From contig CAXWPL010000005.1 in the NCBI GenBank assembly GCA_963666215.2, positions 512,001 through 576,000 of the forward strand: DNA of 64,000 nt, read 5' to 3'. Both the position numbers and the translations under genes were made by a program. Origin of the DNA: Acidobacteriota bacterium (GTDB lineage: Bacteria > Acidobacteriota > UBA890 > WLXD01). Below, piece by piece: positions 1-13,170 of the stretch (positions are counted from its first letter, which is position 1; each line of letters opens with the position of its first letter). The notes under the pieces are model-generated. The model made no database searches. It saw nothing but the letters and a program-made list of their open reading frames with translations, and was not told where the DNA came from.

Positions 1-2
1 AC

Positions 3-1736
3 GCTTCGGGTCATCCGCGGCCGGAAGTCGATGCCGTGGGCGGTGGCGAGAGCGACACCACCGCCGGCCGGATGAGCCCAATCAGTCACGGATCGAGCTC
101 GACAATGATCCGCGCGGCGATCGACGCCGAGGACGCCGCCGGCCTCTACTACGCCTCCACAACAGCCATATCTCGCCTGACTCGCCACTATCTGCACGAA
201 GCCGAGTCCGCGCTGGCGCTCCCGGGGGCTGCTCAGGAGCCCCTCGAGCGTGCACGGCGCATCTATCGGGCTCTCGAGCAGGACTTTCTGCGCAACTACG
301 ATCCAGGCGGCAACGCACGACTGGGCCTGAGCTGGCTGACGCTCTCGTCGACGGTCGGCACGGCCGGGGTGGCGGGGACCTCCGCGCGTGGCGCCAATAC
401 CGAAGCTTTCGTAGGGGCTCGTGAAGAGATCTCGCGCTATCTCATCGATAACTACGAGATCTCCGCGGGCCGCGCCGCGCCGCGCCAAACCTTCCTGCCG
501 CTGCCCGAAAGTGCTGTCGCAGCTGAGGCTGACCTCCGCCCCTTGAATTGGCTGCCGCCGGGCGCCGACCTCAACGATCAGGATCCGTTGCCTCGACTGG
601 TACTCAACTTCGAGGAGCGCGGCATTGATGAGAAAGACCTCTTTCTGGTGGCCTACGGCGACATGCTGTTCGACTCGCCCCAGGTGTTTGGCGACCCGGC
701 ACGCGGTCTCGGCCTGACCTGCTCACGGTGCCACAACCGCAGCGACATCAACCGGCGGCTGTTCATCCCGGGTGTGAGCGCCCGACCGGGCGGCCTCGAC
801 ATAGACGGGCACTTCTTCAACCCGCGCTTCAACGATCGCCGCAACGACCCGCTCGACATACCGAGCCTGCGCGGCATCCGCTTTACCGGCCCCTACGGAC
901 GCGACGGACGCGACGGTAGCCTGCGCGACTTCACCCGCAACGTGGTGGTGAACGAGTTCGCCGGCGACGAGCCCACGCCGTTGATGCTCGACGCCCTGGT
1001 GGCTTACATGCAGGAATTCGACTGGCTGCCGGCGCCCTACCTCGAGCCCGACGGAAGGCTCAAGCCCTCGGCTCCAGCCGGCGCCGGGCGCGGCGAAGTG
1101 CTCTTCAACAAGGAATTCGATGGCATGGGCGGGCGCTCCTGCAGCACCTGCCATATCGCCAGCGCCAACTTCGTAGACACCCTTCGCCACGACATCGGCA
1201 GCGGCGATCCGTCGAGCCCGAACGCCCGCGACAGTGCCTTCGAAACCCCGACGCTGCTCGGCGTCGCCCACACCGGCCCGTATTTCCACGACGGCTCGCA
1301 GGAAACGCTTGCCGACGTGGTGAGCTGGTTCAACGAGCACCATTCGCTTGGTCTCAGCGCTCCAGAGCGAAGCGACCTCACGGCCTACATCGAGGCGATC
1401 GGCACCGGCGAAGATCCGTACGAGATCTTCGACGAAGAGAACACTCAGTTCGGGATGTTCTTCGGCGAGCTCACCACCTTCGCCAGCACCCTCAGCACCC
1501 TGCTGCCAGCGCGCGACACGTTCCACGCCGATCTGCTCATCCGCACCGTCGCCGAAGACATGCGGCTCGACGCCAGCGCATTGATTGACAGATCGCAGGC
1601 GCCCCTGGTTTACGAGCTGGCGGACAAGCTCGAGGAAATCGGCACCGCGATCAACGCCGACGATTGGGCCACGGCCGAGTCGCGCTGGATCGAGTACCAA
1701 CAGCTCGAGGCCGAGTACGGGCCTGACTTCAGGTGA
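3..1736 (+). CDS. Di-heme cytochrome c peroxidase/MauG-like protein with helical N- and C-terminal extensions (5' partial)
   Basis: Two CxxCH motifs (CSRCH, CSTCH), IPSLRG and FETPTLLGVAHTGPYFHDGS motifs; frame is open to the window edge. Confidence 0.8.
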   Translation, partial: ASGHPRPEVDAVGGGESDTTAGRMSPISHGSSSTMIRAAIDAEDAAGLYYASTTAISRLTRHYLHEAESALALPGAAQEPLERARRIYRALEQDFLRNYDPGGNARLGLSWLTLSSTVGTAGVAGTSARGANTEAFVGAREEISRYLIDNYEISAGRAAPRQTFLPLPESAVAAEADLRPLNWLPPGADLNDQDPLPRLVLNFEERGIDEKDLFLVAYGDMLFDSPQVFGDPARGLGLTCSRCHNRSDINRRLFIPGVSARPGGLDIDGHFFNPRFNDRRNDPLDIPSLRGIRFTGPYGRDGRDGSLRDFTRNVVVNEFAGDEPTPLMLDALVAYMQEFDWLPAPYLEPDGRLKPSAPAGAGRGEVLFNKEFDGMGGRSCSTCHIASANFVDTLRHDIGSGDPSSPNARDSAFETPTLLGVAHTGPYFHDGSQETLADVVSWFNEHHSLGLSAPERSDLTAYIEAIGTGEDPYEIFDEENTQFGMFFGELTTFASTLSTLLPARDTFHADLLIRTVAEDMRLDASALIDRSQAPLVYELADKLEEIGTAINADDWATAESRWIEYQQLEAEYGPDFR

Positions 1737-1740
1737 TCGC

Positions 1741-2769
1741 ATGAGCCAAGAAACTCAATTGCAGGCGCGCCGACCCACCGCTACATCTCGTCCGAGTCAC
1801 CGTTGGCGTTGCGACGGAGGTGTGAACGACACGAGTCGGCCGAATCGGCAAGCTCCGCGGCGCTCTCGGCTCGGCCTTTTGGTGGCCGCGCTCGTGCTCA
1901 GCTCTTCGGCAATGCCTTCTCGGCCGGCCCTCGCGGCGCTGTGGGGCCCGGCAACGGGTCAGACAGGCGGCGGCCCGGGTGCCCCGCTTGTCCTGGCGTT
2001 TATCCCGCAGGAGAACCCCGAGAAGCTGCTTGGCGACATCGATGCGTTCACCAGCTACCTCGCCGCTGAGCTCGGCCAGCCCGTGCGCGGCTTCGTGACG
2101 CTCGATCACGCCGCCGCCGTCGAGGCGTTGCGCCACGGTGATGCCGACATCTCGTTCATGGGCGCCCTGCCCTACGTGATTGCCCACGAGCTCATTGGCG
2201 CGCGCGTGCTGCTCTCGGAGATCTATCGTGGCCGACCTGTCTACCGCGGTCGCATTTTTGTGCGTCGCGACGGTGGCATCCGCACACTGGCCGACCTACG
2301 CGGCAAAACAATCGCTTTCCCCGACCCGATCTCCGAGTCAGGCTACTTGTACCCGCTCGACCTGTTCGCACGCGCCAACCTGCTCGAGCGCGGCGCCGAT
2401 CCTCAGAGCTTCTTCGGCACGGTCTACTTCGCAGGCGGCTACCAGCAGGCCATCGCCGCGGTGGCCAACGGCTACGTGGACGCGGCGGGCGCGAGTCAGT
2501 TCGCCGACCTGTTGCTAACGCCCGAGCAGCTGCGAGATGTGACGTGGATCGCCGAAACCGACGAGATTCCTTCACACGCCGTCATCGCGCGCGGCGACTT
2601 GCCGGAACCCCGCGCCGCGGCGTTCGTTGCCGCCATGCTGAAGCTCAACGAGCCCGAGTATCAGCACCTGCTGCAGTACGTCTACGGCCCCGACGGCTAT
2701 GTGACGACGACTCACGAAGCCTACGCCGGTGTGGCCGATGTCGCGCGGCTCTACGGACTGCTCGAATAA
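1741..2769 (+). CDS. PhnD/PtxB-fold ABC substrate-binding protein (ligand uncertain)
   Basis: Signal peptide; AVEALRHGDADISFMGALPYV; LADLRGKTIAFPDPISESGYLYP; precedes ATPase and permease. Confidence 0.85.
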   Translation: MSQETQLQARRPTATSRPSHRWRCDGGVNDTSRPNRQAPRRSRLGLLVAALVLSSSAMPSRPALAALWGPATGQTGGGPGAPLVLAFIPQENPEKLLGDIDAFTSYLAAELGQPVRGFVTLDHAAAVEALRHGDADISFMGALPYVIAHELIGARVLLSEIYRGRPVYRGRIFVRRDGGIRTLADLRGKTIAFPDPISESGYLYPLDLFARANLLERGADPQSFFGTVYFAGGYQQAIAAVANGYVDAAGASQFADLLLTPEQLRDVTWIAETDEIPSHAVIARGDLPEPRAAAFVAAMLKLNEPEYQHLLQYVYGPDGYVTTTHEAYAGVADVARLYGLLE

Positions 2770-2776
2770 CAGCCAC

Positions 2777-3592
2777 GTGCCCGCAGCCGCCGAATCCACC
2801 GAGGTGTCGCCGCACGCCCTACAGCTGACGGGTGTCCGCGCGCGCTACGGCGACGGACCCTGGGTGGTCGACGTCGAGCAGCTGACCGTCAATCGCGGCG
2901 AGCGCGTGGCCATCATCGGGCCCAGCGGTTCAGGCAAGACGAGCCTGTTACGGCTCATCAACGGTTATGTTCCGGCGGTAGAAGGGCAACTGCAGATTCT
3001 TGGAAGGACCCCTCGGGATCAGGGTCGCCGCCGCTCTGCGCGCACCGCCGTGGCGTTCATCTTTCAGGAATTCCACCTCGTCGACCGGGCCAGCGTCTTC
3101 GACAACGTGCTGTGGGGTCGCCTCGGGCACGTCCACCCGCTCTCGAGCCTGCTCGGCCGCTTCCCGCTGGCCGACAAGCGGGCCGCCATGGAGGCGATCG
3201 CGGAGGTGGATCTCACTCCTCAGGCAACCCAGCGGGCCGACACACTGAGCGGCGGCCAGAAGCAAAGGGTGGGTGTGGCGCGAGCGCTCGCGCAGGAGCC
3301 ACAGATCCTGCTGGCCGACGAGCCCGTCAGCAATCTCGACCCTGCGCTCGCGGACGACATCCTCGAGCTCCTGGTGCGATCAGCAGAACGACGCAACGCG
3401 ACGCTGCTGCTGACGCTGCATCAACCCGAGCTGGCGCGACGCCATGCCGATCGCATCGTTGGCATGCGCGAAGGCCATGTTGTCCACGACGGCCGCAGCG
3501 GCGACCTGACGGACGCCGACCTGAAGCGCATCTATGGTCGCGAGGGCATTCCGCAGCTCGAACCTCGTGAAAGCTCTGCTCGACGGGCATGA
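2777..3592 (+). CDS. phnC: PhnC-like ABC ATPase
   Basis: Walker A GPSGSGKT, LSGGQKQRV, ILLADEPVSNLDP. Confidence 0.85.
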   Translation: MPAAAESTEVSPHALQLTGVRARYGDGPWVVDVEQLTVNRGERVAIIGPSGSGKTSLLRLINGYVPAVEGQLQILGRTPRDQGRRRSARTAVAFIFQEFHLVDRASVFDNVLWGRLGHVHPLSSLLGRFPLADKRAAMEAIAEVDLTPQATQRADTLSGGQKQRVGVARALAQEPQILLADEPVSNLDPALADDILELLVRSAERRNATLLLTLHQPELARRHADRIVGMREGHVVHDGRSGDLTDADLKRIYGREGIPQLEPRESSARRA

Positions 3593-4392
3593 TGAGCCCG
3601 TCGAGCGACATCGACGCGCGTATTCCGCGCCCCTCGCCGATGCAGAGCTTCGGCCGCGTGGCCGCCATCCTGGGCGTGGTGGCGGCGATTGCCTGGGGAT
3701 GGCACGGCACGAGCTTCGACCCGGCGCGCTTCGTGGCAGGGCTGCCACGGCTGCGCGAGTTCGTGGGACGCATGCTGCCACCCGACGCCGACGTGGCGTC
3801 GACCGTTCTGCGATCAACGGTTGAAACGCTGCAAATAGCTCTGTTCGGCACACTCTTGAGCGCCATCGCGTCGGTGGTCCTGGGCGTGGCGGCAGCACGA
3901 ACGCTGGCGCCGGCGTGGCTGGCAATCCCACTGAAGTGGATGCTCAGCGCGCTGCGCGCGATCCCGATGCTGCTGCTGGCGCTGTTGTTCGTGTCGACGG
4001 TCGGCCTCGGCCCCTTCCCGGGAGTGCTCGCGGTTGCGGTGCATTCCACCGGGATGCTCGGCAAGTTCTACGCCGAGGCTTTCGACGGCGCCCGATCGGG
4101 TCCGTTGGAGGCGCTCGACTCGGCAGGAGCCTCGTGGCTGCAGCGGGTCCGATTCGGCGTGCTGCCGCAGGTGGCGCCCGTACTGGCACGCGACACACTT
4201 TTCCGTTTCGAGCTCAACCTCCGCGAATCACTCGCCCTGGGCCTCGTCGGCGCCGGTGGTATCGGCCTCTACATCCAGATGTACACCCGAGCGTTCCAGT
4301 ACGACAAAGTTGCTACTCTGACGATCGTCGTGCTCCTCATGGTGGTGCTCGTCGAACAGGCCAGCGTCGCGGTCCGGCAGCGTCTCCGCTAG
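3589..4392 (+). CDS. phnE: PhnE-like ABC permease
   Basis: ETLQIA, GMLGKFYAEAF, RFELNLRES..LGLVGAGGIG; overlaps the ATPase stop codon. Confidence 0.85.
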   Translation: MMSPSSDIDARIPRPSPMQSFGRVAAILGVVAAIAWGWHGTSFDPARFVAGLPRLREFVGRMLPPDADVASTVLRSTVETLQIALFGTLLSAIASVVLGVAAARTLAPAWLAIPLKWMLSALRAIPMLLLALLFVSTVGLGPFPGVLAVAVHSTGMLGKFYAEAFDGARSGPLEALDSAGASWLQRVRFGVLPQVAPVLARDTLFRFELNLRESLALGLVGAGGIGLYIQMYTRAFQYDKVATLTIVVLLMVVLVEQASVAVRQRLR

Positions 4393-4419: not shown

Positions 4420-7400
4420 ATGAAGCTAGCCTCAGGCACAGCCAAGCCGGCACCCAGATCGCTCCTACGGGTCGGGCTGCTCGGCCTCGGGCTGATCTCC
4501 CTTGCGGCGGTTCTTTGGGCCTGGAGCTTCACCCACTCCGGCCTACCGCGACGCCGAGGCGCGGCCGCCATCCCCGGCTTGTCGGCGCCGGTCCGCGTTC
4601 GATTCGACGACTGGGGCGTGCCGCACCTCGACGGCGCGAGCTTCGCCGATTTGGCGCGTGGCATGGGCTACGTCCACGCCAACGATCGATTCTTGCAGCT
4701 CGAGCTCGGCCGGCGACAGGCCGCCGGCCGGCTCGCCGAGGTTCTCGGGGAGCGGGCCGTGGGCGCCGATCGTTACTACCGCGGCCTCGGGCTGACCCGG
4801 ATCGCTCGAGCGCAGGTAGAGGCTGCCGGAGCCGAAACTTCCCGTCTTCTCGACGCCTATGCCGATGGCGTCAACGCCTGGCTCGCTGAGCGGCGCGGCG
4901 ATCTGCCGCCCGACGTGCGGTTGCTGTTGCGCGGCCGAGAGCACTCGCAACCGGACCCCTGGAAGCCGATCGACAGCGTCTATTTCCAGCTGCTCATGGC
5001 ACACGACCTGGGTTTCTGGCAGGGCCGACCCGAGGAAACGCGCTTCGAGTTGCTTGCCAGTCTGGGCAGAGAGCGCTTCGCCGACCTCATGGGAGACAAT
5101 CCGCACGTGCCGCGCGAAATCGCCGACCTCGCAGCCGAGCTCTCCAGCCAGCTCGCAACCCGGGAGGCCGACCGCCTGGCCGGGTTCCGGCCGGACCCCG
5201 TGGCCGCCGCGTTCGCCGCGCGGCGCACCTCGTCAGCCGTCGCCAGCGAACAACGCGTCGCGATCGGCAGCAACAACTGGGCGGTCGACGGCAACCACGC
5301 GGCAAGCGGATTGCCGCTGCTGGCGAGCGACCCCCATCTCGCATTGCGACTGCCGTCGATTTGGTATCAGGCCCTGCTACGGGCGCCCGACTACGAGGCC
5401 GCCGGGATGACGCTGATTGGTTTCCCGTTCGTTGTCATCGGCCGTGGGCCGGATCTCGCCTGGGGCTTCACCAATACCATGCTCGACGATCACGACCTGT
5501 TCTTCGAAGAGGTCGAAAACGGTCGCGTTCGTCGCGGCGACCGCTGGGTCGAGCTCGAGCAGGTCGAGGAGCGGATCCTCGTGCGCGGCGCCGACCCGAT
5601 TGCGATCACCGTCAGCTACGGCGATCGAGGCGTGGTTCTGCCACCCGATGAAGAGAGAGGCTTGCCGGCACGCAGCCTCAGCTGGACGGCCGCGGTACCG
5701 AGCGATCCTTCCACAGCGTTGCTGAATCTGGCTCGCGCACGATCGATCGACGACGTCCGCGAGATCGGTGAGATGGGGGGCGGCCTCGAGGGCTACGCCG
5801 CCCCGGCGCAGAATCTGGTCGCCGCCGATCGGGCGGGCGGCATTCTGCAGACGGTCATCGGACGCGTTCCGCTGCGGCGCCGCGGGGACGGGCGACTGCC
5901 GTCGCCGGGGTGGGACGAGCGCTACGGCTGGTCCGGACTGCGTCCGCAACACGCCAATCCTACGATCGAGCGGCCTGGACGCGGTTTCTTGACCAGCGCC
6001 AACAACGACGTTCGCGGAAGTCCTGGCAACGATACCGGCACGGCAACCACCGCAGATGAAGGTGTTTCTGTCCCGCGCAACGCATCTGGCGGTCCGACGG
6101 TTTCCGACGACGACGACGTCGAGCTCGACGCGGCCTTAGACGTCGCTCTCGTCGGCAACTTCGACACCGACCATCGGGTGCGACGCATCGAAGAGCTCCT
6201 GGCGGCCCGCGGCGATTGGACCCCGACAGGTTTCGCCGAGCTGCAGAGCGACACCCGCTCGCTCTACGCCAGCGAGGTGATCGCCGCGACGCGCGCGCAC
6301 TTCAAGGTGCCTAACGGTGGTGGGGACGCCCAACGGAATTACGCGCCCGAAGATCCGAGAGCGACGCGAGCTCTCGATCTGCTGGCGGCCTGGGACGGCG
6401 ACATGCGCACCGAGGCCGGCCCGGCGGCAGCTCTTTTCGTCCCGTTCGATCAGGAGCTTCACCGAGCGGTCTTCGCCGACGAGGTGCACGAGGCCGCGCG
6501 CAGGTCTGGCTTCAACCGCCGCCGACAGCTCACTCGATTGCTTCGGGGAGACATGACGGACAGCTGGTACGACGACGTCTCGACGACCCAGACAGAGGGC
6601 GCGCGCGACATTTTCGAGCGCGCGCTGGCCGTTGCATGGCAGCGAGCCAGCGAGGCTTGGGGTGAGGACTCGGAACGCTGGAACTACGAGACGATCCACA
6701 CGCTCACGTTGACGCATCCGCTCGGATCGCTGCCCGTCGTCGGCAGCTGGTTGAACCGCGGCCCCATGCCCATCCCCGGATCGGCTACCAGCGTCGCCGC
6801 CTTCGGTGGCGGCTTGAGCGACCGACGGGTAGTCGTGACCGCTGGGCCCTCGATGCGTTGGATCGCCGACCTTTCCGAAGCCGACTCCGGACTCGTCTCC
6901 CTACCCGGCGGTCAATCCGGCCATCCGCTCGACCCGCACTACACCGATCAGCTGCAGCCGTATCTGCAGAACCAGGGACGGCCGCTGCGCTTCACCGAGG
7001 CTGCGATCGCCGCCAACACCGTCAGCACCATGGCGCTGCTACCGACCGTGAGTCGCTCGCTTGGGGCTGGAGGCGGCGAGAGCGGAGACGAGATCGACCT
7101 GCTCCTGGTCAGCGAGCGCGTGGTCGATGGCAGCGGTGCCGCGGCCGGGCCCGCGGCGATCGGATCGTCTACGTCGGGCCGGTGGAGCGCGCGCCGCGGG
7201 CCACCGAAACGCTCGACGTCGGAAGCTCGATCATCGCGCCCGGATTCATCGACACGCACACGCATGCGCTCTCGGCAGCAAACGATCCGCGCCGCTCACT
7301 GGCGGAAAACTACCTGTGCCAGGGTGTCACGACACTCGTGGCAGGCAACGACGGCGGCGGCCCGTTCACAGTGCAGGCCACGTTCGAGGCCATGGAGCGG

Positions 7401-7842
7401 AATGGGCTCGGACCGAACGTCGGCCTTCTCGTTGGCCACGACCCGATACGGCGCGCGGTGGTCGGCGCCGACGACCGGCACGCCACCGACGTCGAAATCG
7501 CACGCATGCGTGAGCTGGTCGAAGACGCGATGCGAGAAGGTGCTCTGGGGTTCTCGACTGGGCTCTTCTATCCCACGGGCTTCTACGCCGAGACCAGCGG
7601 GGTCATCGAGCTGGCTCGGGGCGCGGCTGCACATGGCGGCATCTACGACAGCCACATGCGTGACGAAGGCTCGTTCTCCATCGGAGTGCTGGAAGCGGTT
7701 CGCGAGACTGTGCGAATTGGAGAGGAGGCCGGCCTACCGGTGCACATCGCGCACATCAAGGCCCTGGGCCCCGACAACTGGGGGCTTTCCGAAGAGATCG
7801 TCGCGATCATCGCCGCGGCGCGAGCCCGCGGGCTCCGAGTGA
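4420..7842 (+). CDS. Penicillin acylase family Ntn-hydrolase (domain ends near 7050; remainder is the start of a D-aminoacylase domain, then out-of-frame tail)
   Basis: FDDWGVPH, GYVHANDR, GSNNWAV nucleophile, SDPHL, PGGQSGHP..PHYTDQ. Confidence 0.85.
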   Translation: MKLASGTAKPAPRSLLRVGLLGLGLISLAAVLWAWSFTHSGLPRRRGAAAIPGLSAPVRVRFDDWGVPHLDGASFADLARGMGYVHANDRFLQLELGRRQAAGRLAEVLGERAVGADRYYRGLGLTRIARAQVEAAGAETSRLLDAYADGVNAWLAERRGDLPPDVRLLLRGREHSQPDPWKPIDSVYFQLLMAHDLGFWQGRPEETRFELLASLGRERFADLMGDNPHVPREIADLAAELSSQLATREADRLAGFRPDPVAAAFAARRTSSAVASEQRVAIGSNNWAVDGNHAASGLPLLASDPHLALRLPSIWYQALLRAPDYEAAGMTLIGFPFVVIGRGPDLAWGFTNTMLDDHDLFFEEVENGRVRRGDRWVELEQVEERILVRGADPIAITVSYGDRGVVLPPDEERGLPARSLSWTAAVPSDPSTALLNLARARSIDDVREIGEMGGGLEGYAAPAQNLVAADRAGGILQTVIGRVPLRRRGDGRLPSPGWDERYGWSGLRPQHANPTIERPGRGFLTSANNDVRGSPGNDTGTATTADEGVSVPRNASGGPTVSDDDDVELDAALDVALVGNFDTDHRVRRIEELLAARGDWTPTGFAELQSDTRSLYASEVIAATRAHFKVPNGGGDAQRNYAPEDPRATRALDLLAAWDGDMRTEAGPAAALFVPFDQELHRAVFADEVHEAARRSGFNRRRQLTRLLRGDMTDSWYDDVSTTQTEGARDIFERALAVAWQRASEAWGEDSERWNYETIHTLTLTHPLGSLPVVGSWLNRGPMPIPGSATSVAAFGGGLSDRRVVVTAGPSMRWIADLSEADSGLVSLPGGQSGHPLDPHYTDQLQPYLQNQGRPLRFTEAAIAANTVSTMALLPTVSRSLGAGGGESGDEIDLLLVSERVVDGSGAAAGPAAIGSSTSGRWSARRGPPKRSTSEARSSRPDSSTRTRMRSRQQTIRAAHWRKTTCARVSRHSWQATTAAARSQCRPRSRPWSGMGSDRTSAFSLATTRYGARWSAPTTGTPPTSKSHACVSWSKTRCEKVLWGSRLGSSIPRASTPRPAGSSSWLGARLHMAASTTATCVTKARSPSECWKRFARLCELERRPAYRCTSRTSRPWAPTTGGFPKRSSRSSPRREPAGSE

Positions 7843-8633
7843 CGGCCGATCAGTACCCCTACGCGGCCTCCAGCACGACGATCGCCGGTGCCGTGCTGCC
7901 GCGCTGGGCCCTGGCCGGCGGCGACGAGGCGTTCGCGGAACGCTACGGCTCGGGAAATTCGAATGATCCCGAGACGGCCGCAAGCCGCATGCTGACCGAG
8001 ATCGAGGCCAATATCGCGCTACGCGCCGGGCCGCAGGCATTGCAGTTTTCCAGCGGTCCGGAGTTGCTCGGCCGCGGTGGCAACTCGATTGCCATCGCCG
8101 GTCGGACTCTCGCCGATGTGGCCGCGGCACTCGGCGTCTCACCTGCCGAAGCGTCGGTACGCGTGCAGCTCGGCGGCGGCGCCAGCGTTGTGTCGTTCGA
8201 TATGTCGGACGCCGACGTGAAACGCTTTCGAGGCCTGCGCTGGGTCATGACCTCGTCGGACGGCTCACTCGTTCTTCCCGGTGAGGGTGTTCCCCACCCG
8301 CGCTCCTACGGCAGCTTCGCGCGGGTGATCTCACATTTCGTCCGCGACACCGAGCAGCTGACACTGCCCGAGGCGATTCGCAGCGCCACCAGCCTACCAG
8401 CGGCGACGTTCGGGCTCGGCGATCGCGGGCTGCTGCGTGCAGGAGCCACCGCCGACGTCATCGTGTTCGATGCCCAGGCGATCGACGACCGCGCGACCTT
8501 CGCGGCGCCTCACGCTCATGCGGCAGGCGTCGCGCAGGTCATCGTTAACGGCCGCTTCGTTATTCGCGACGGAGAACTCACCGGCGCGCGCCCAGGTCGA
8601 GGCCTGCGGCGTGGGGAACACAATCCGCGTTGA
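7081..8633 (+). pseudogene. N-acyl-D-amino-acid deacylase (amidohydrolase) domain, frameshifted near 7155
   Basis: DLLLVSERVVDGSG in the acylase frame; RGDRIVYVG, APGFIDTHTH, SHMRDE, HIAHIK, PHPRSYGSF in another frame. Confidence 0.75.
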
Positions 8634-9590
8634 CTAGTTGCCGGCGGCGCCCTTCCCCTTGGCGGTGCTCCCACCGCCGACTCCATTGCGTCCGTTGCCC
8701 CCGTTCCCCGAGCTCCGAAGCGCGCCCGCGATGCGCTCCGTGGCAGCCGCCAAGCCAGCCGGCAGCTGCACGCCGGGAATGGTTGGCATGTCTTTCGGAG
8801 CCAGCGACGGGGCGTACAGAGACAACTGCGCCGGCACACGGCTAACAACGAGCGTACGCGCCGCTCGGTTGAGGCCGGCAAGCTGAGCCCGAGTCGCCAC
8901 GTGCAAGCACACCGCCGACGGCTTGGCCTGCCGAACCGCGGTCACGAGATCCTCCGGCCGAACGTCAGGGCCGAGGTAGAGGACGCCGAGATCGCGCTGA
9001 CGAAGCATCACCGACAGGGCGAGCAAACCCAGGTCGTGCGACTCTCCCTCGGGACAACCAAGCAGCACCTGCGGCTGATGGCCGCCGTGTCCGTTGAGCT
9101 GAGCGAGCTGGGCGCCCACTTCGCAACGAATCACCTCCGCGGCGAATGCGATGTTCGCCGCCGACACCGACGCCTCGCCCCAGCCGGCCGACAGCTGCTC
9201 GAGTGCCGGGAAGGCGATACGCTCCATGGTTGGCGCCCATCCGGTGGAGTACACCGAGTCGCGGAGTATTCGCAGCAGCCACCCCTGATCGAAAGCAAGG
9301 GTCTTCTGCACGAACAGCTCCACCAGCGGATGGGGCCGTGAGCTGGCCTCGTGCAGCTCGGCCTCGCTCGTGCCTTCCATGCGCACTGCATCGGCGGCAT
9401 TGGAGGCCGACACACCCGACAAGATCAGGGCCGCCATCCGCCGAACGACGGCGATGTCGCCATCACTATAGCGACGCTGCCCGGAGTCGGTACGTTCCGG
9501 AGCCGGCACCCCGTAACGGCGCTCCCAGGTGCGCAGTCGACTCTCCGACACGCCGGTAGCTGTGGCTGTTCCCTTGACGGTGTAGTGCAT
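8634..9590 (-). CDS. MerR-family regulator with cobalamin-binding domain (CarH/LitR-like)
   Basis: LRTWERRYGVPAPERTDSGQRRY HTH; CPEGESHDLG (ExHxxG) and YLGPDV B12 Rossmann motifs. Confidence 0.85.
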   Translation of the reverse strand: MHYTVKGTATATGVSESRLRTWERRYGVPAPERTDSGQRRYSDGDIAVVRRMAALILSGVSASNAADAVRMEGTSEAELHEASSRPHPLVELFVQKTLAFDQGWLLRILRDSVYSTGWAPTMERIAFPALEQLSAGWGEASVSAANIAFAAEVIRCEVGAQLAQLNGHGGHQPQVLLGCPEGESHDLGLLALSVMLRQRDLGVLYLGPDVRPEDLVTAVRQAKPSAVCLHVATRAQLAGLNRAARTLVVSRVPAQLSLYAPSLAPKDMPTIPGVQLPAGLAAATERIAGALRSSGNGGNGRNGVGGGSTAKGKGAAGN

Positions 9591-12567: not shown

Positions 12568-13170
12568 CGGGCTTCTGTCGCCAGCGGCTGCAACCGTTCG
12601 CGGAGCTTGCGCACGGCTCGGAAAATCGTGTTCTTCACCGCGTTGTCGCTGCTCTCGAGCACGGCGCCAATTTCGCGAATCGACATCCCCTGCTGATGGC
12701 GCAGCACAAAGGCGGTCCTCTCGGTGGGGCTCAGGAGTTCCATGGCATGCAGAACCCGGTCACCGACCTCGGTGCCAAAGGGCAACCCGTTCGGGGCCGG
12801 CCGCCGGGCTTGGGACGCTTTGCAGGAGCCCCAGCGCTGTCGGAAGGCCACCCTTCTCATCGCCGGCCGACACCTCGCGCACTCGACGGGGCCCTTCGTG
12901 GCGGTCACGCCGGCGCAGAAAATCGATGGCGCAGTTGCTAGTGACCCGGTGCAGCCAGGTGCCGAACCGTGCCTCCGCGCGGAACTCGGGCAACTTCTGA
13001 AAGGCTCGCAGAAAGGCTTCTTGCACCACTTCCTCCGCGTCTTCCGGACGCCGTGTGATTCGAAACGCGAGCGCGTAGACACGTCGTGCGTGCCGCTCCA
13101 CGAGCAGCCGAAACGCCTCTTCGTCGCCGGCCTGAGCACGAACAACGATGTCGGTTTCATTCGCGTCCAT
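12564..13170 (-). pseudogene. ECF sigma-70 factor, 1-nt frameshift near 12780 (possibly a sequencing error)
   Basis: Region 2 (DAEEVVQEAFLRAF, FGTWLHRV) and region 4 (LSPTERTAFVLRH..SIREIG..VKNTIFRA) lie in different frames. Confidence 0.8.

Follow-up and report, generated by a model that had tools for sequence, protein, structure and literature searches.

We analyzed a 64,000-nucleotide stretch of DNA from an Acidobacteriota bacterium (hereafter the window; contig CAXWPL010000005.1, positions 512,001 to 576,000, or G000:C5:512001-576000), which belongs to a 4.65 Mb genome assembly in 5 contigs that is 91.7% complete. The subject of this report is a cassette of four co-directional genes at window positions 1-4392, which encode a di-heme cytochrome, a PhnD-family solute-binding protein (SBP), a PhnC-like ATPase and a PhnE permease of a transporter of the ATP-binding cassette (ABC) type. 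Judged from its sequence and those of its relatives, the cassette would seem, at odds slightly better than even (roughly 0.55), to be a manganese-repressed importer of a metal cation. The four genes are as follows:

1 to 1736, + strand: di-heme cytochrome gene, 3' 1736 nt, stop codon at 1734-1736 (open reading frame and translation)
1741 to 2769, + strand: PhnD-family periplasmic SBP, 342 aa from the first ATG (PF12974, TIGR01098)
2777 to 3592, + strand: ABC ATPase, PhnC-like, GTG start (PF00005, 114.3 bits)
3589 to 4392, + strand: ABC permease, PhnE (TIGR01097, above cut-off)

The cytochrome and SBP genes are separated by 4 nt, the SBP and ATPase genes by 7 nt, and the ATPase and permease genes overlap by 4 nt. 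An earlier model-generated note on this DNA (the original prediction) had described this tight packing, with gaps of 4, 7 and -4 nt, and the gene coordinates bear it out, with the provisos that the cytochrome gene runs off the window edge and that the SBP start is uncertain. Inside the window the cytochrome reading frame covers 3-1736; in full it begins 238 nt ahead of window base 1, at G000:C5:511763. The first ATG of the SBP frame is at 1741, but the first ~40 residues precede the signal peptide and cannot be aligned with relatives, so translation may in fact begin further downstream, and the 4-nt gap would then be wider. The permease scores above the TIGR01097 PhnE cut-off (263.2 bits against 216.7) and the ATPase below that of TIGR02315 PhnC (242.2 bits against 266.1).

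The SBP belongs to the PhnD family, scoring 188.6 bits with PF12974 (cut-off 27) and 149.6 bits with TIGR01098 (cut-off 112.05). It falls short of the PhnD equivalog TIGR03431 (144.9 bits against 261.1). At E<=0.01 its Pfam matches are PF12974 and NMT1 and no others, with no FbpA or transferrin family and no PF01297 (ZnuA/MntC/SitA, cluster A-I). The mature domain spans approximately residues 81-342, and the predicted local distance difference test (pLDDT) of its AlphaFold model exceeds 90 over most of 80-342. The closest solved sequences found with HMMER are PtxB (5o2j, 7.2e-20) and AioX (8ed5, 3.1e-18), accompanied by a second PtxB entry (5lv1), HtxB and ArrX, and E. coli PhnD is a more distant match. 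Foldseek likewise places PtxB at the top for the SBP model (5jvb and 5o2j, E ~1e-23), followed by transferrins at ~1e-13. With PtxB, HtxB, PhnD, AioX and ArrX the SBP shares its fold, the family PF12974 and the families of its partner permease and ATPase.

The ligand pocket differs sharply from that of PtxB. Pocket positions were assigned by HMMER alignment to PtxB 5o2j and 5lv1, with residue names for Pseudomonas stutzeri PtxB taken from part of the text of PMC5700983 (Bisson 2017). Conservation was scored over 189 sequences, made up of 120 database proteins, 68 locus translations and the window SBP. The pocket features are:

2008 to 2013, + strand: Gln90-Glu91, with Gln90 at the position of PtxB Asp16; kept in at least 98% of the 189
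2104 to 2109, + strand: Asp122-His123, with His123 in place of PtxB Tyr49 of the D-Y motif; Asp122 in 189/189, His123 in 184/189
2242 to 2244, + strand: Tyr168, equivalent to PtxB Tyr94, a hinge Tyr contacting the ligand; 189/189
2332 to 2340, + strand: Ser198-Glu199-Ser200 in place of PtxB Ser124-Thr125-Ser126 (S-T-S); 189/189
2434 to 2442, + strand: Gly232-Gly233-Tyr234, with Tyr234 in place of PtxB His155; 189/189
2572 to 2577, + strand: Ser278-His279, with His279 at the PtxB capping Tyr (PIPQY; 5lv1 alignment); invariant in 40/40 and kept in at least 98% of the 189

Gly201 and Gln235, contiguous with the SES and GGY motifs, are likewise present in 189/189. Of the PtxB ligand positions named in the cited part of PMC5700983, the SBP has in common with PtxB Tyr94 and the two serines of S-T-S alone. 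Tyr49, Thr125, His155, the capping Tyr and Asp16, which holds the capping Tyr in PtxB according to the same part of that paper, give way to His, Glu, Tyr, His and Gln, respectively. The DH, Y, S-E-S and GGY assignments made by eye in the original prediction were correct and fall at PtxB ligand positions, and the alignment to 5o2j and 5lv1 adds the changes of Asp16 to Gln90 and of the capping Tyr to His279. From these replacements we infer that His123, Tyr168, Glu199, Tyr234 and His279 bind a metal, perhaps together with a synergistic anion at Ser198 and Ser200.

The substituted pocket defines a discrete subfamily. Searched exhaustively with HMMER, 1.84 billion cluster representatives yielded 6306 matches at E<=0.001 and 71 at E<=1e-30, and among the best 150 representatives the SES motif is confined to the top-scoring subfamily. 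The next clades carry signatures such as DY/SSS/GGY[E/Q]/[S/T]H and DY/DMS/GGDE/SH, and farther ones have the canonical DY/STS/H. A sister cassette is present in L121, L122 and L123 (L numbers denote related loci), which come from distant genomes of the same phylum; in L123 an operator lies ~85 nt upstream of the cytochrome gene. The L121 and L122 cytochromes are 42-44% identical to that of the window and the SBPs 46-49% identical, and the pocket of these sister SBPs consists of Tyr123, Tyr168, S-S-S, Asp234 and His279. Relative to the window pocket, Tyr and carboxylate trade positions, and two Tyr, a His and an acid are kept. An exchange of this kind within the same residue set is what a conserved metal site would predict. 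The ligand set of transferrin is Tyr, Tyr, Asp and His, the same as in the sister pocket.

FbpA and transferrin have the class II periplasmic-binding fold of the window SBP, as is reflected in the structural matches to transferrins, and their ligand chemistry is Tyr, Tyr and His plus a carboxylate. A synergistic anion at a helix N-terminus, as in these proteins, might also apply to the window SBP. The SBP differs from both in placing its putative ligands at PhnD-pocket positions, in its association with Mn-type regulators and in its di-heme partner.

It is very unlikely in our estimate that the system is still a PhnD-family transporter of an oxyanion or small neutral molecule (phosphite, phosphonate, arsenite, selenate or similar), with the cytochrome converting the substrate. 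Such a role would suit the family membership (PF12974 and TIGR01098, with PhnE over its cut-off), the kept Ser198, Ser200 and Tyr168 of the anion site, and the label of phosphate, phosphite or phosphonate SBP that the protein carries in public databases. AioX, which the PDB title of 6eu7 describes as binding neutral arsenite, reads S-N-S-G-Y in the corresponding position. However, the window SBP has a carboxylate in the center of the S-T-S motif and has lost Tyr49, His155 and the capping Tyr, and the cassette is associated with metal-sensor regulation, with no Pho-type regulatory context seen at related loci. The genetic setting also argues against an oxyanion: PhnJ (carbon-phosphorus (C-P) lyase, PF06007) has no match in the whole genome of the window, and among 145 flanking open reading frames (ORFs) of 20 diverse loci there is no C-P lyase or other phn family at E<=1e-5 and no ptx, aio or arr gene, no search being aimed at ptxD specifically. 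The cassette is set apart from PtxB and PhnD systems, in that it has a metal regulator and an obligatory cytochrome partner and no catabolic phn or ptx genes turned up. The original prediction had noted that no C-P lyase is nearby, which holds for the flanking ORFs and, for PhnJ, genome-wide; its proposal of a phosphonate scaffold repurposed for a cation is supported by the near-invariance of the replaced oxyanion ligands in the subfamily and by the finding of no phn catabolic genes.

The cytochrome and the transporter are inherited together. A scan of one genome per species returned 231 stretches with an SBP relative, and the best 80 were analyzed. The original prediction had suggested checking whether the pocket variant co-occurs with the cytochrome, and it does so from both directions. 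In 80/80 loci the gene immediately upstream of the SBP gene encodes a cytochrome homologue (45-65% identity). The ATPase gene follows downstream in 79/80, the single miss ending at a contig edge, and the permease gene is present in 77/80, the 3 misses ending at locus edges. In a reciprocal search of 301 genomes of the window's phylum with a cytochrome profile, the cytochrome was found in 11, the window's own included, and in 6 of the 10 other genomes of its family. The 12 loci in the 10 other carrier genomes include 9 that extend past the cytochrome gene, and the SBP gene adjoins in 9/9. Carriers span at least seven phyla or classes (Acidobacteriota, Spirochaetaceae, Dadabacteria, Caldilineaceae, Thermodesulfobacteriota, Alphaproteobacteria and Gammaproteobacteria). 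The proteobacterial carriers include many Rhodobacterales and Hyphomicrobiales, Nisaea, Porticoccus and other Gammaproteobacteria, and roseobacters and Hoeflea are among the cultured ones.

In 6 of 12 same-phylum loci an outer-membrane beta-barrel gene is inserted between tandem TTAG-N6-CTAA operators and the cytochrome gene (L113-L115, L117, L119 and L120, from the window's family and order; PF13557 at 74.5 bits in L114). The window's own genome has only a distant relative of this protein (33% identity), encoded elsewhere at C2:677208-677881. Such a gene would be in keeping with a small hydrophilic solute being taken up through two membranes.

A 13-kb region containing the cassette is common to L059, L063, L064, L065, L067, L068 and L072-L075, which represent about ten roseobacter genera by name. 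The genera with near-identical cassettes are Shimia, Cognatishimia, Phaeobacter, Tropicibacter, Pelagimonas, Litorivita, Actibacterium, Tritonibacter and Halocynthiibacter, and most of these cassettes are identical at 12972-12975 of 12975 positions. Such identity across genera could be due to very recent horizontal transfer, contamination or a collection artefact.

The full cytochrome has 657 residues, including an N-terminal signal peptide, and two c-type heme-binding motifs:

720 to 734, + strand: first heme-binding motif, CSRCH, residues 320-324; C320, C323 and H324 invariant in 33/33 sequences
1140 to 1154, + strand: second heme-binding motif, CSTCH, residues 460-464; C460, C463 and H464 invariant in 33/33 sequences

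Two CxxCH motifs together with a family hidden Markov model match qualify the protein for the cytochrome c peroxidase (CCP)/MauG superfamily (PF03150), the match being just over the cut-off (31.5 bits against 25.6) with partial coverage of the profile (10-78 of 149). It fails the NCBIfam equivalogs for MbnH (TIGR04039, 44.2 bits against 362.85), MauG (TIGR03791, 34.5 against 443.85) and hydrazine synthase gamma (30.8 against 625). When a profile of 33 homologues was compared with PDB sequences, matches were confined to the second heme domain, with hydrazine synthase gamma at the top (5c2v_C, 1.5e-14), followed by 6e1c, CCPs and MauG. The homologues can be aligned end to end, are 617-682 aa long, each carry two CxxCH motifs and are conserved over their full length (44-57% identity in more than 60 loci). 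Public names for them are "cytochrome c peroxidase", "cytochrome C" or "hypothetical".

The window cytochrome resembles MauG, MbnH, BthA and CCPs in having two c-type hemes and second-domain motifs such as PTL...PYFHDGS. It is far larger than these proteins (657 aa against ~320-390 aa) and has a ~250-aa N-terminal helical domain and a ~100-aa C-terminal four-helix bundle, neither with a match among PDB sequences. AlphaFold models both extra domains confidently (residues ~30-250 and 555-657) and the heme core poorly, with pLDDT <50 over 270-423 and 465-511. An ESM Atlas search with the N-terminal domain returned nothing usable, and the PDB profile search matched the second heme domain only. Alignment of the cytochrome model with VIA-align matched the C-terminal bundle alone, with PsbQ as the best hit (1nze_A, Z 13.2, root-mean-square deviation 2.5, 99 aligned); this likeness is within the tool's range for helical bundles generally and is uninformative. 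A 22-residue insertion at cytochrome residues ~81-110 (window 1-90) is absent in all 32 aligned homologues and is modelled with low confidence. In one database protein (P0211, 752 aa) a FeoA/SH3-like domain (PF04023) is joined to the cytochrome; this probably reflects a gene call in which the tail of a three-domain DtxR-family regulator was run together with the cytochrome gene.

Like MauG, MbnH and BthA, the cytochrome is encoded beside a protein on which it might act, and MauG/MbnH-type enzymes modify a protein encoded alongside them. The di-heme enzyme could accordingly oxidize Tyr, Trp or His residues of the SBP, building a binding site or cofactor with which the SBP then delivers a metal or other cargo. 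The strict pairing of the cytochrome and SBP genes and the presence of MauG and 6e1c among the PDB matches speak for this maturation role, as do the nearest named families, which are MbnH, the MauG-like family associated with the His-Xaa-Ser system (TIGR03981, 39 bits) and MauG. All three nevertheless score far under their cut-offs, and the similarity is limited to the second heme domain. The extra helical domains at both termini have no counterpart in MauG or MbnH, and the pocket already has five ligand-type side chains, so that modification would be unnecessary. On balance we regard maturation of the SBP as improbable.

We also co-folded the mature cytochrome and SBP with 2 hemes and Mn. The SBP was placed against the cytochrome with a score of 0.60 (runs of 0.60, 0.57 and 0.60), compared with 0.00 for the best of 3 controls. 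The runs share at least 64% of their contacts, and the partner pLDDT is at least 84. In calibration the mark was reached by 58/80 solved complexes and 2/110 mismatched pairs, and at scores of 0.60 or less by just 7/80 solved complexes and both of the passing mismatches; these counts are rough, custom alignments and small molecules having been used here. The co-fold gives weak support to a contact between cytochrome and SBP, which would suit a maturation role among others.

Evidence on the nature of the cargo comes from regulation. For this comparison near-identical duplicates (L018, L038, L042, L059, L064, L065, L067, L068 and L072-L075) and also L001 were dropped, leaving 69 loci including the window's own; 6 have no upstream DNA, and 63 were counted for regulators. 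A DtxR/MntR-family gene adjoins the cytochrome gene in 52/63 loci and a Fur-family gene in 1 (L020). The regulator is a divergently transcribed two-domain protein in Rhodobacterales, some Hyphomicrobiales, Nisaea and Porticoccus, and a co-directional three-domain protein with an FeoA/SH3-like domain in Dadabacteria, Thermodesulfobacteriota and two Caldilineaceae. The regulators of L046 (197.4 bits) and L048 (198.6 bits) exceed the cut-off of the MntR equivalog NF008273 (153), and the best PDB match of the proteobacterial regulator is E. coli MntR (2h09, 2.6e-37). All the metal-ligand residues of B. subtilis MntR are identically aligned in the proteobacterial regulator, and Asp8 together with Glu/Asp100-x-x-Glu103-His104 is found in 7/7 aligned regulators. 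These acidic residues stand where the iron-sensing DtxR has Met10 and Cys102. The adjacent regulators look like manganese sensors rather than the iron type.

A strict search for TTAG-N6-CTAA found 49 sites in 46/68 loci, located between the regulator and cytochrome genes. The palindrome sits over or just past the -10 box. In roseobacter loci it comes after a promoter resembling TTGACA-17-TAGATA, and in L005 and L007 it overlaps the -10 of a five-gene operon of regulator, cytochrome, SBP, ATPase and permease. A degenerate form of the operator was searched for in 5 carrier genomes, and in each the sole perfect match is the cassette promoter. Sites with 2 mismatches are no commoner than those of a reversed-pattern control, and one of them was retained because of its position: in Nisaea it separates a second MntR gene (182.1 bits) from a gene for a ZnuA/MntC-family SBP (PF01297, 8e-81), whose best NCBIfam matches are Mn/Fe SBPs, under their cut-offs. 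The position of the operators and the identity of the regulators suggest Mn-dependent repression of the cassette.

Several loci without a DtxR-family neighbor have other elements, namely Fur/Mur-like boxes in L010, L012, L014, L016 and L020 and Mur-like repeats in L011 and L015. Part of PMC1698941 (Rodionov 2006) describes the Fur homologue of Rhizobiales and Rhodobacterales as Mur, which controls Mn transporters through a Fur-box-like palindrome, and reports that iron genes there use RirA, Irr and Iron-Rhodo boxes. Because the Fur-like boxes come from alphaproteobacterial orders whose Fur homologues function as Mur, the putative imported cation is more likely Mn than Fe.

Ferric uptake, in which the cytochrome would oxidize Fe(II) and the SBP bind Fe(III) through an FbpA-like His/Glu/Tyr/Tyr set, is the reading closest to the original prediction. 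In composition (2 Tyr, 2 His and a Glu) the pocket comes nearest to the FbpA and transferrin ferric sites, and transferrins are among the structural matches at E ~1e-13, behind the PhnD family. The boxes of L010, L012, L014, L016 and L020 are classical Fur-like ones, a Fur-family gene adjoins in L020, and some DtxR-family regulators sense Fe. Against this, adjacent regulators pass the MntR equivalog cut-off and have Asp/Glu ligands, not the Met/Cys of DtxR; the sole other operator copy found is at the mntR and ZnuA/MntC-type locus of Nisaea; and iron genes in Rhodobacterales and Rhizobiales are under RirA, Irr and Iron-Rhodo, their Fur homologues being Mur (PMC1698941, in the part cited). We consider ferric uptake unlikely. 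Iron as cargo is, on the MntR match and the Asp/Glu ligands, not supported in the form first stated. As to the suggestion of looking for Fur versus Pho boxes, the expectation of metal control stood, with metal-regulator operators and metalloregulator genes in most loci, and the iron part did not, the regulators being Mn-type.

The window's own genome carries the same operator at the cassette, outside the window:

G000:C5:511735-511754: operator TTAG-N6-CTAA, 15.7 bits with a position weight matrix (PWM), ending 9 nt before the cytochrome ATG

The PWM was built from 41 distinct foreign operator sites, and a scan of the 4.65 Mb found 3 sites above 12 bits, the cassette operator among them. No Shine-Dalgarno-like sequence was seen after the operator, so the cassette transcript may be leaderless. 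A scan for the sigma-70 consensus upstream of the cytochrome gene found 0 sites. The sole DtxR-family gene of the genome, on C1, encodes a 235-aa protein of MntR type by its best match (5zr4, 3.3e-45); it scores 178.8 bits with NF047407 (cut-off 350) and 101.2 bits with DtxR models, below all cut-offs. The PWM scan found no operator at this regulator gene.

MntR-type repression would also suit a Mn-sparing response. The cassette could then be a low-Mn stress module that imports no free metal, with the cytochrome acting as a peroxidase when Mn-dependent antioxidant enzymes fail and the ABC transporter importing an organic compound or metal chelate. The cytochrome does fall in the CCP superfamily, and the pocket could take a chelate. 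However, the cytochrome and SBP are strictly inherited together across phyla, which speaks for a shared biochemical task, the conserved extra domains of the cytochrome are not found in detoxifying CCPs, and PhnD-family cavities are small, according to part of PMC5700983. We give such a stress module little credence, as little as an oxyanion role.

In the manganese-import reading, an MntR/DtxR-family repressor (Mur in some alphaproteobacteria) would bind TTAG-N6-CTAA over the promoter when Mn is replete and shut the operon off, a step suggested by operator position and regulator identity. At low Mn the 657-aa di-heme CCP/MauG-type cytochrome and the PhnD-fold SBP would be secreted. The SBP would present a hard-cation set of His123, Tyr168, Glu199, Tyr234 and His279, the replacement of these residues being established by alignment and their metal binding proposed from it, and a synergistic anion might be bound by Ser198 and Ser200, much as FbpA or transferrin holds one. 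Import of the cargo would, judging by family membership, fall to the permease and ATPase of PhnE/PhnC type.

For the cytochrome a redox role, as in the original prediction, or a maturation role is inferred. Our preferred but tentative suggestion is that it oxidizes Mn(II) to Mn(III), which the phenolate-rich site would then capture tightly; we favor this direction given the preference of two-Tyr sites for trivalent ions and the Mn-type regulators. Alternatively, the cytochrome might liberate Mn by reducing Mn(III)/Mn(IV) species, or modify the SBP. Heme-peroxidase-coupled Fe uptake by EfeUOB and the Mn(III) loading of transferrin after oxidation are analogues. EfeUOB encodes a periplasmic heme enzyme with a metal importer, and the enzyme is thought to change the oxidation state of the metal before capture. 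Its EfeB is a DyP peroxidase and its EfeU a permease of another family, whereas the cassette has a di-heme c-type protein and an ABC importer. In its fullest form, which is possible but speculative, the proposal is of a third, redox-coupled class of bacterial Mn importer: the di-heme protein would oxidize Mn(II) to Mn(III) and hand it to a transferrin-like SBP derived from a phosphite/phosphonate binder for PhnE/PhnC import, a bacterial parallel to transferrin loading that depends on an oxidase, with two pocket variants (His/Tyr/Glu/Tyr/His and Tyr/Tyr/Asp/His) and horizontal spread in marine and soil bacteria of many phyla.

Several observations weigh against a manganese-repressed cation importer. 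In the pocket, Ser198, Ser200 and Gly201 of the anion motif are retained, so an anion may still bind, and two-Tyr sites are typical of M(III) ions such as Fe3+ and not of known Mn(II) binding proteins. Residue-based assignment of metal selectivity in DtxR/MntR proteins is imperfect, and some members respond to Fe. The Fur-like boxes of ~7 loci could be iron-Fur sites, L004, L009 and L029 have no recognized operator, and in Hoeflea a second Fur/Mur-like box precedes a gene for a ZnuA-family SBP that is ambiguous between Zn and Mn (AztC 213.9 bits, MntC 181.8 bits). The DtxR-family gene of the window's own genome is unlinked, with no regulator gene adjoining the cassette; the two PWM sites that outscore the cassette operator are next to an IS481-type transposase/unknown ORF and a PadR-MacB/FtsX locus; and neither the two Nramp genes nor the ZnuA-family gene has an operator (best scores -9 to -15). 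Given the unlinked regulator, the unrelated sites and the Nramp and ZnuA genes without an operator, a Mn regulon is not demonstrated in this organism. The loci compared are not phylogenetically independent, being mostly from Rhodobacterales, and roseobacter loci hold SCO1, PCuAC, CtaG, mer and P-type ATPase genes, which would allow a general metal island or copper.

With MntABC and SitABCD the cassette would share repression by MntR or Mur through a palindromic operator, and the Nisaea ZnuA/MntC locus has a similar palindrome. It differs from them in that its SBP is not of the ZnuA type (cluster A-I), its permease and ATPase are of PhnE/PhnC type and it has a cytochrome partner. What would be new relative to known systems is a metal ABC importer under MntR/Mur control that is built on a different SBP family and has an obligatory di-heme partner. 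In the open full-text literature, with subscription journals and Tables S4 and S5 of PMC1698941 (Mur and MntR regulons) outside its scope, our search found no description of a PhnD-type, cytochrome-linked, Mn-regulated transporter. None appears in the part covered of a 2021 Mn review (PMC8632737), which gives MntH and MntABC as the only conserved Mn importers, or of a 2024 metallostasis review (PMC11672702; first 300,000 characters).

If the proposal is true, more than 1000 proteins in at least 231 species genomes are misannotated as phosphonate transporter and cytochrome c peroxidase, and marine phosphonate/phosphite uptake potential is overestimated from phnD counts. An anion pocket would have been turned into a cation site, with Tyr and carboxylate swapping places between sister pockets. 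In oxic and suboxic waters Mn(III) is a major form of dissolved Mn. The cassette would be a new Mn route beyond the MntH and MntABC named in the covered part of PMC8632737 and would raise the question of bacterial Mn(III) uptake.

Copper, heavy-metal and oxidase-assembly genes neighbor the cassette in roseobacter, Hyphomicrobiales and Porticoccus loci (L011, L016, L019, L023, L046, L048 and L063). They include SCO1, PCuAC, Caa3_CtaG, DsbB, thioredoxin, a mer operon, a CPC-type P-type ATPase, L,D-transpeptidases and signal peptidase II. We considered a role in copper or cytochrome-oxidase assembly and rejected it, since the SCO1, PCuAC and CtaG neighbors (L011, L016, L019 and L046) are not general: these genes were not seen in the scanned Caldilineaceae, Dadabacteria, Thermodesulfobacteriota or Spirochaetaceae loci or beside the window's own cassette.

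Downstream of the cassette, window 4420-8633 (+ strand) holds a penicillin-amidase ORF and an amidohydrolase. The amidase domain ends near nt 7011 and is followed by a typical amidohydrolase N-terminus in the same frame, and the remainder of that amidohydrolase (PF07969) is in a different frame at window 6858-8633. The arrangement resembles a fusion combined with a frameshift or an assembly indel around nt 7150. Penicillin-amidase genes are also near the cassette in L046, with weaker matches in L030, L032, L052 and L079. Window 8634-9590 (- strand) encodes a regulator with a MerR helix-turn-helix and a B12-binding domain, the domain layout of CarH-type regulators, which respond to light or B12. 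On the other side of the cassette, the divergent neighbor just upstream of the window (L002:13323-14705, - strand) has a weak match to LTXXQ, a Spy/CpxP/ZraP-type periplasmic protein family (E 1.3e-4, 23.1 bits, under the 24.3 cut-off).

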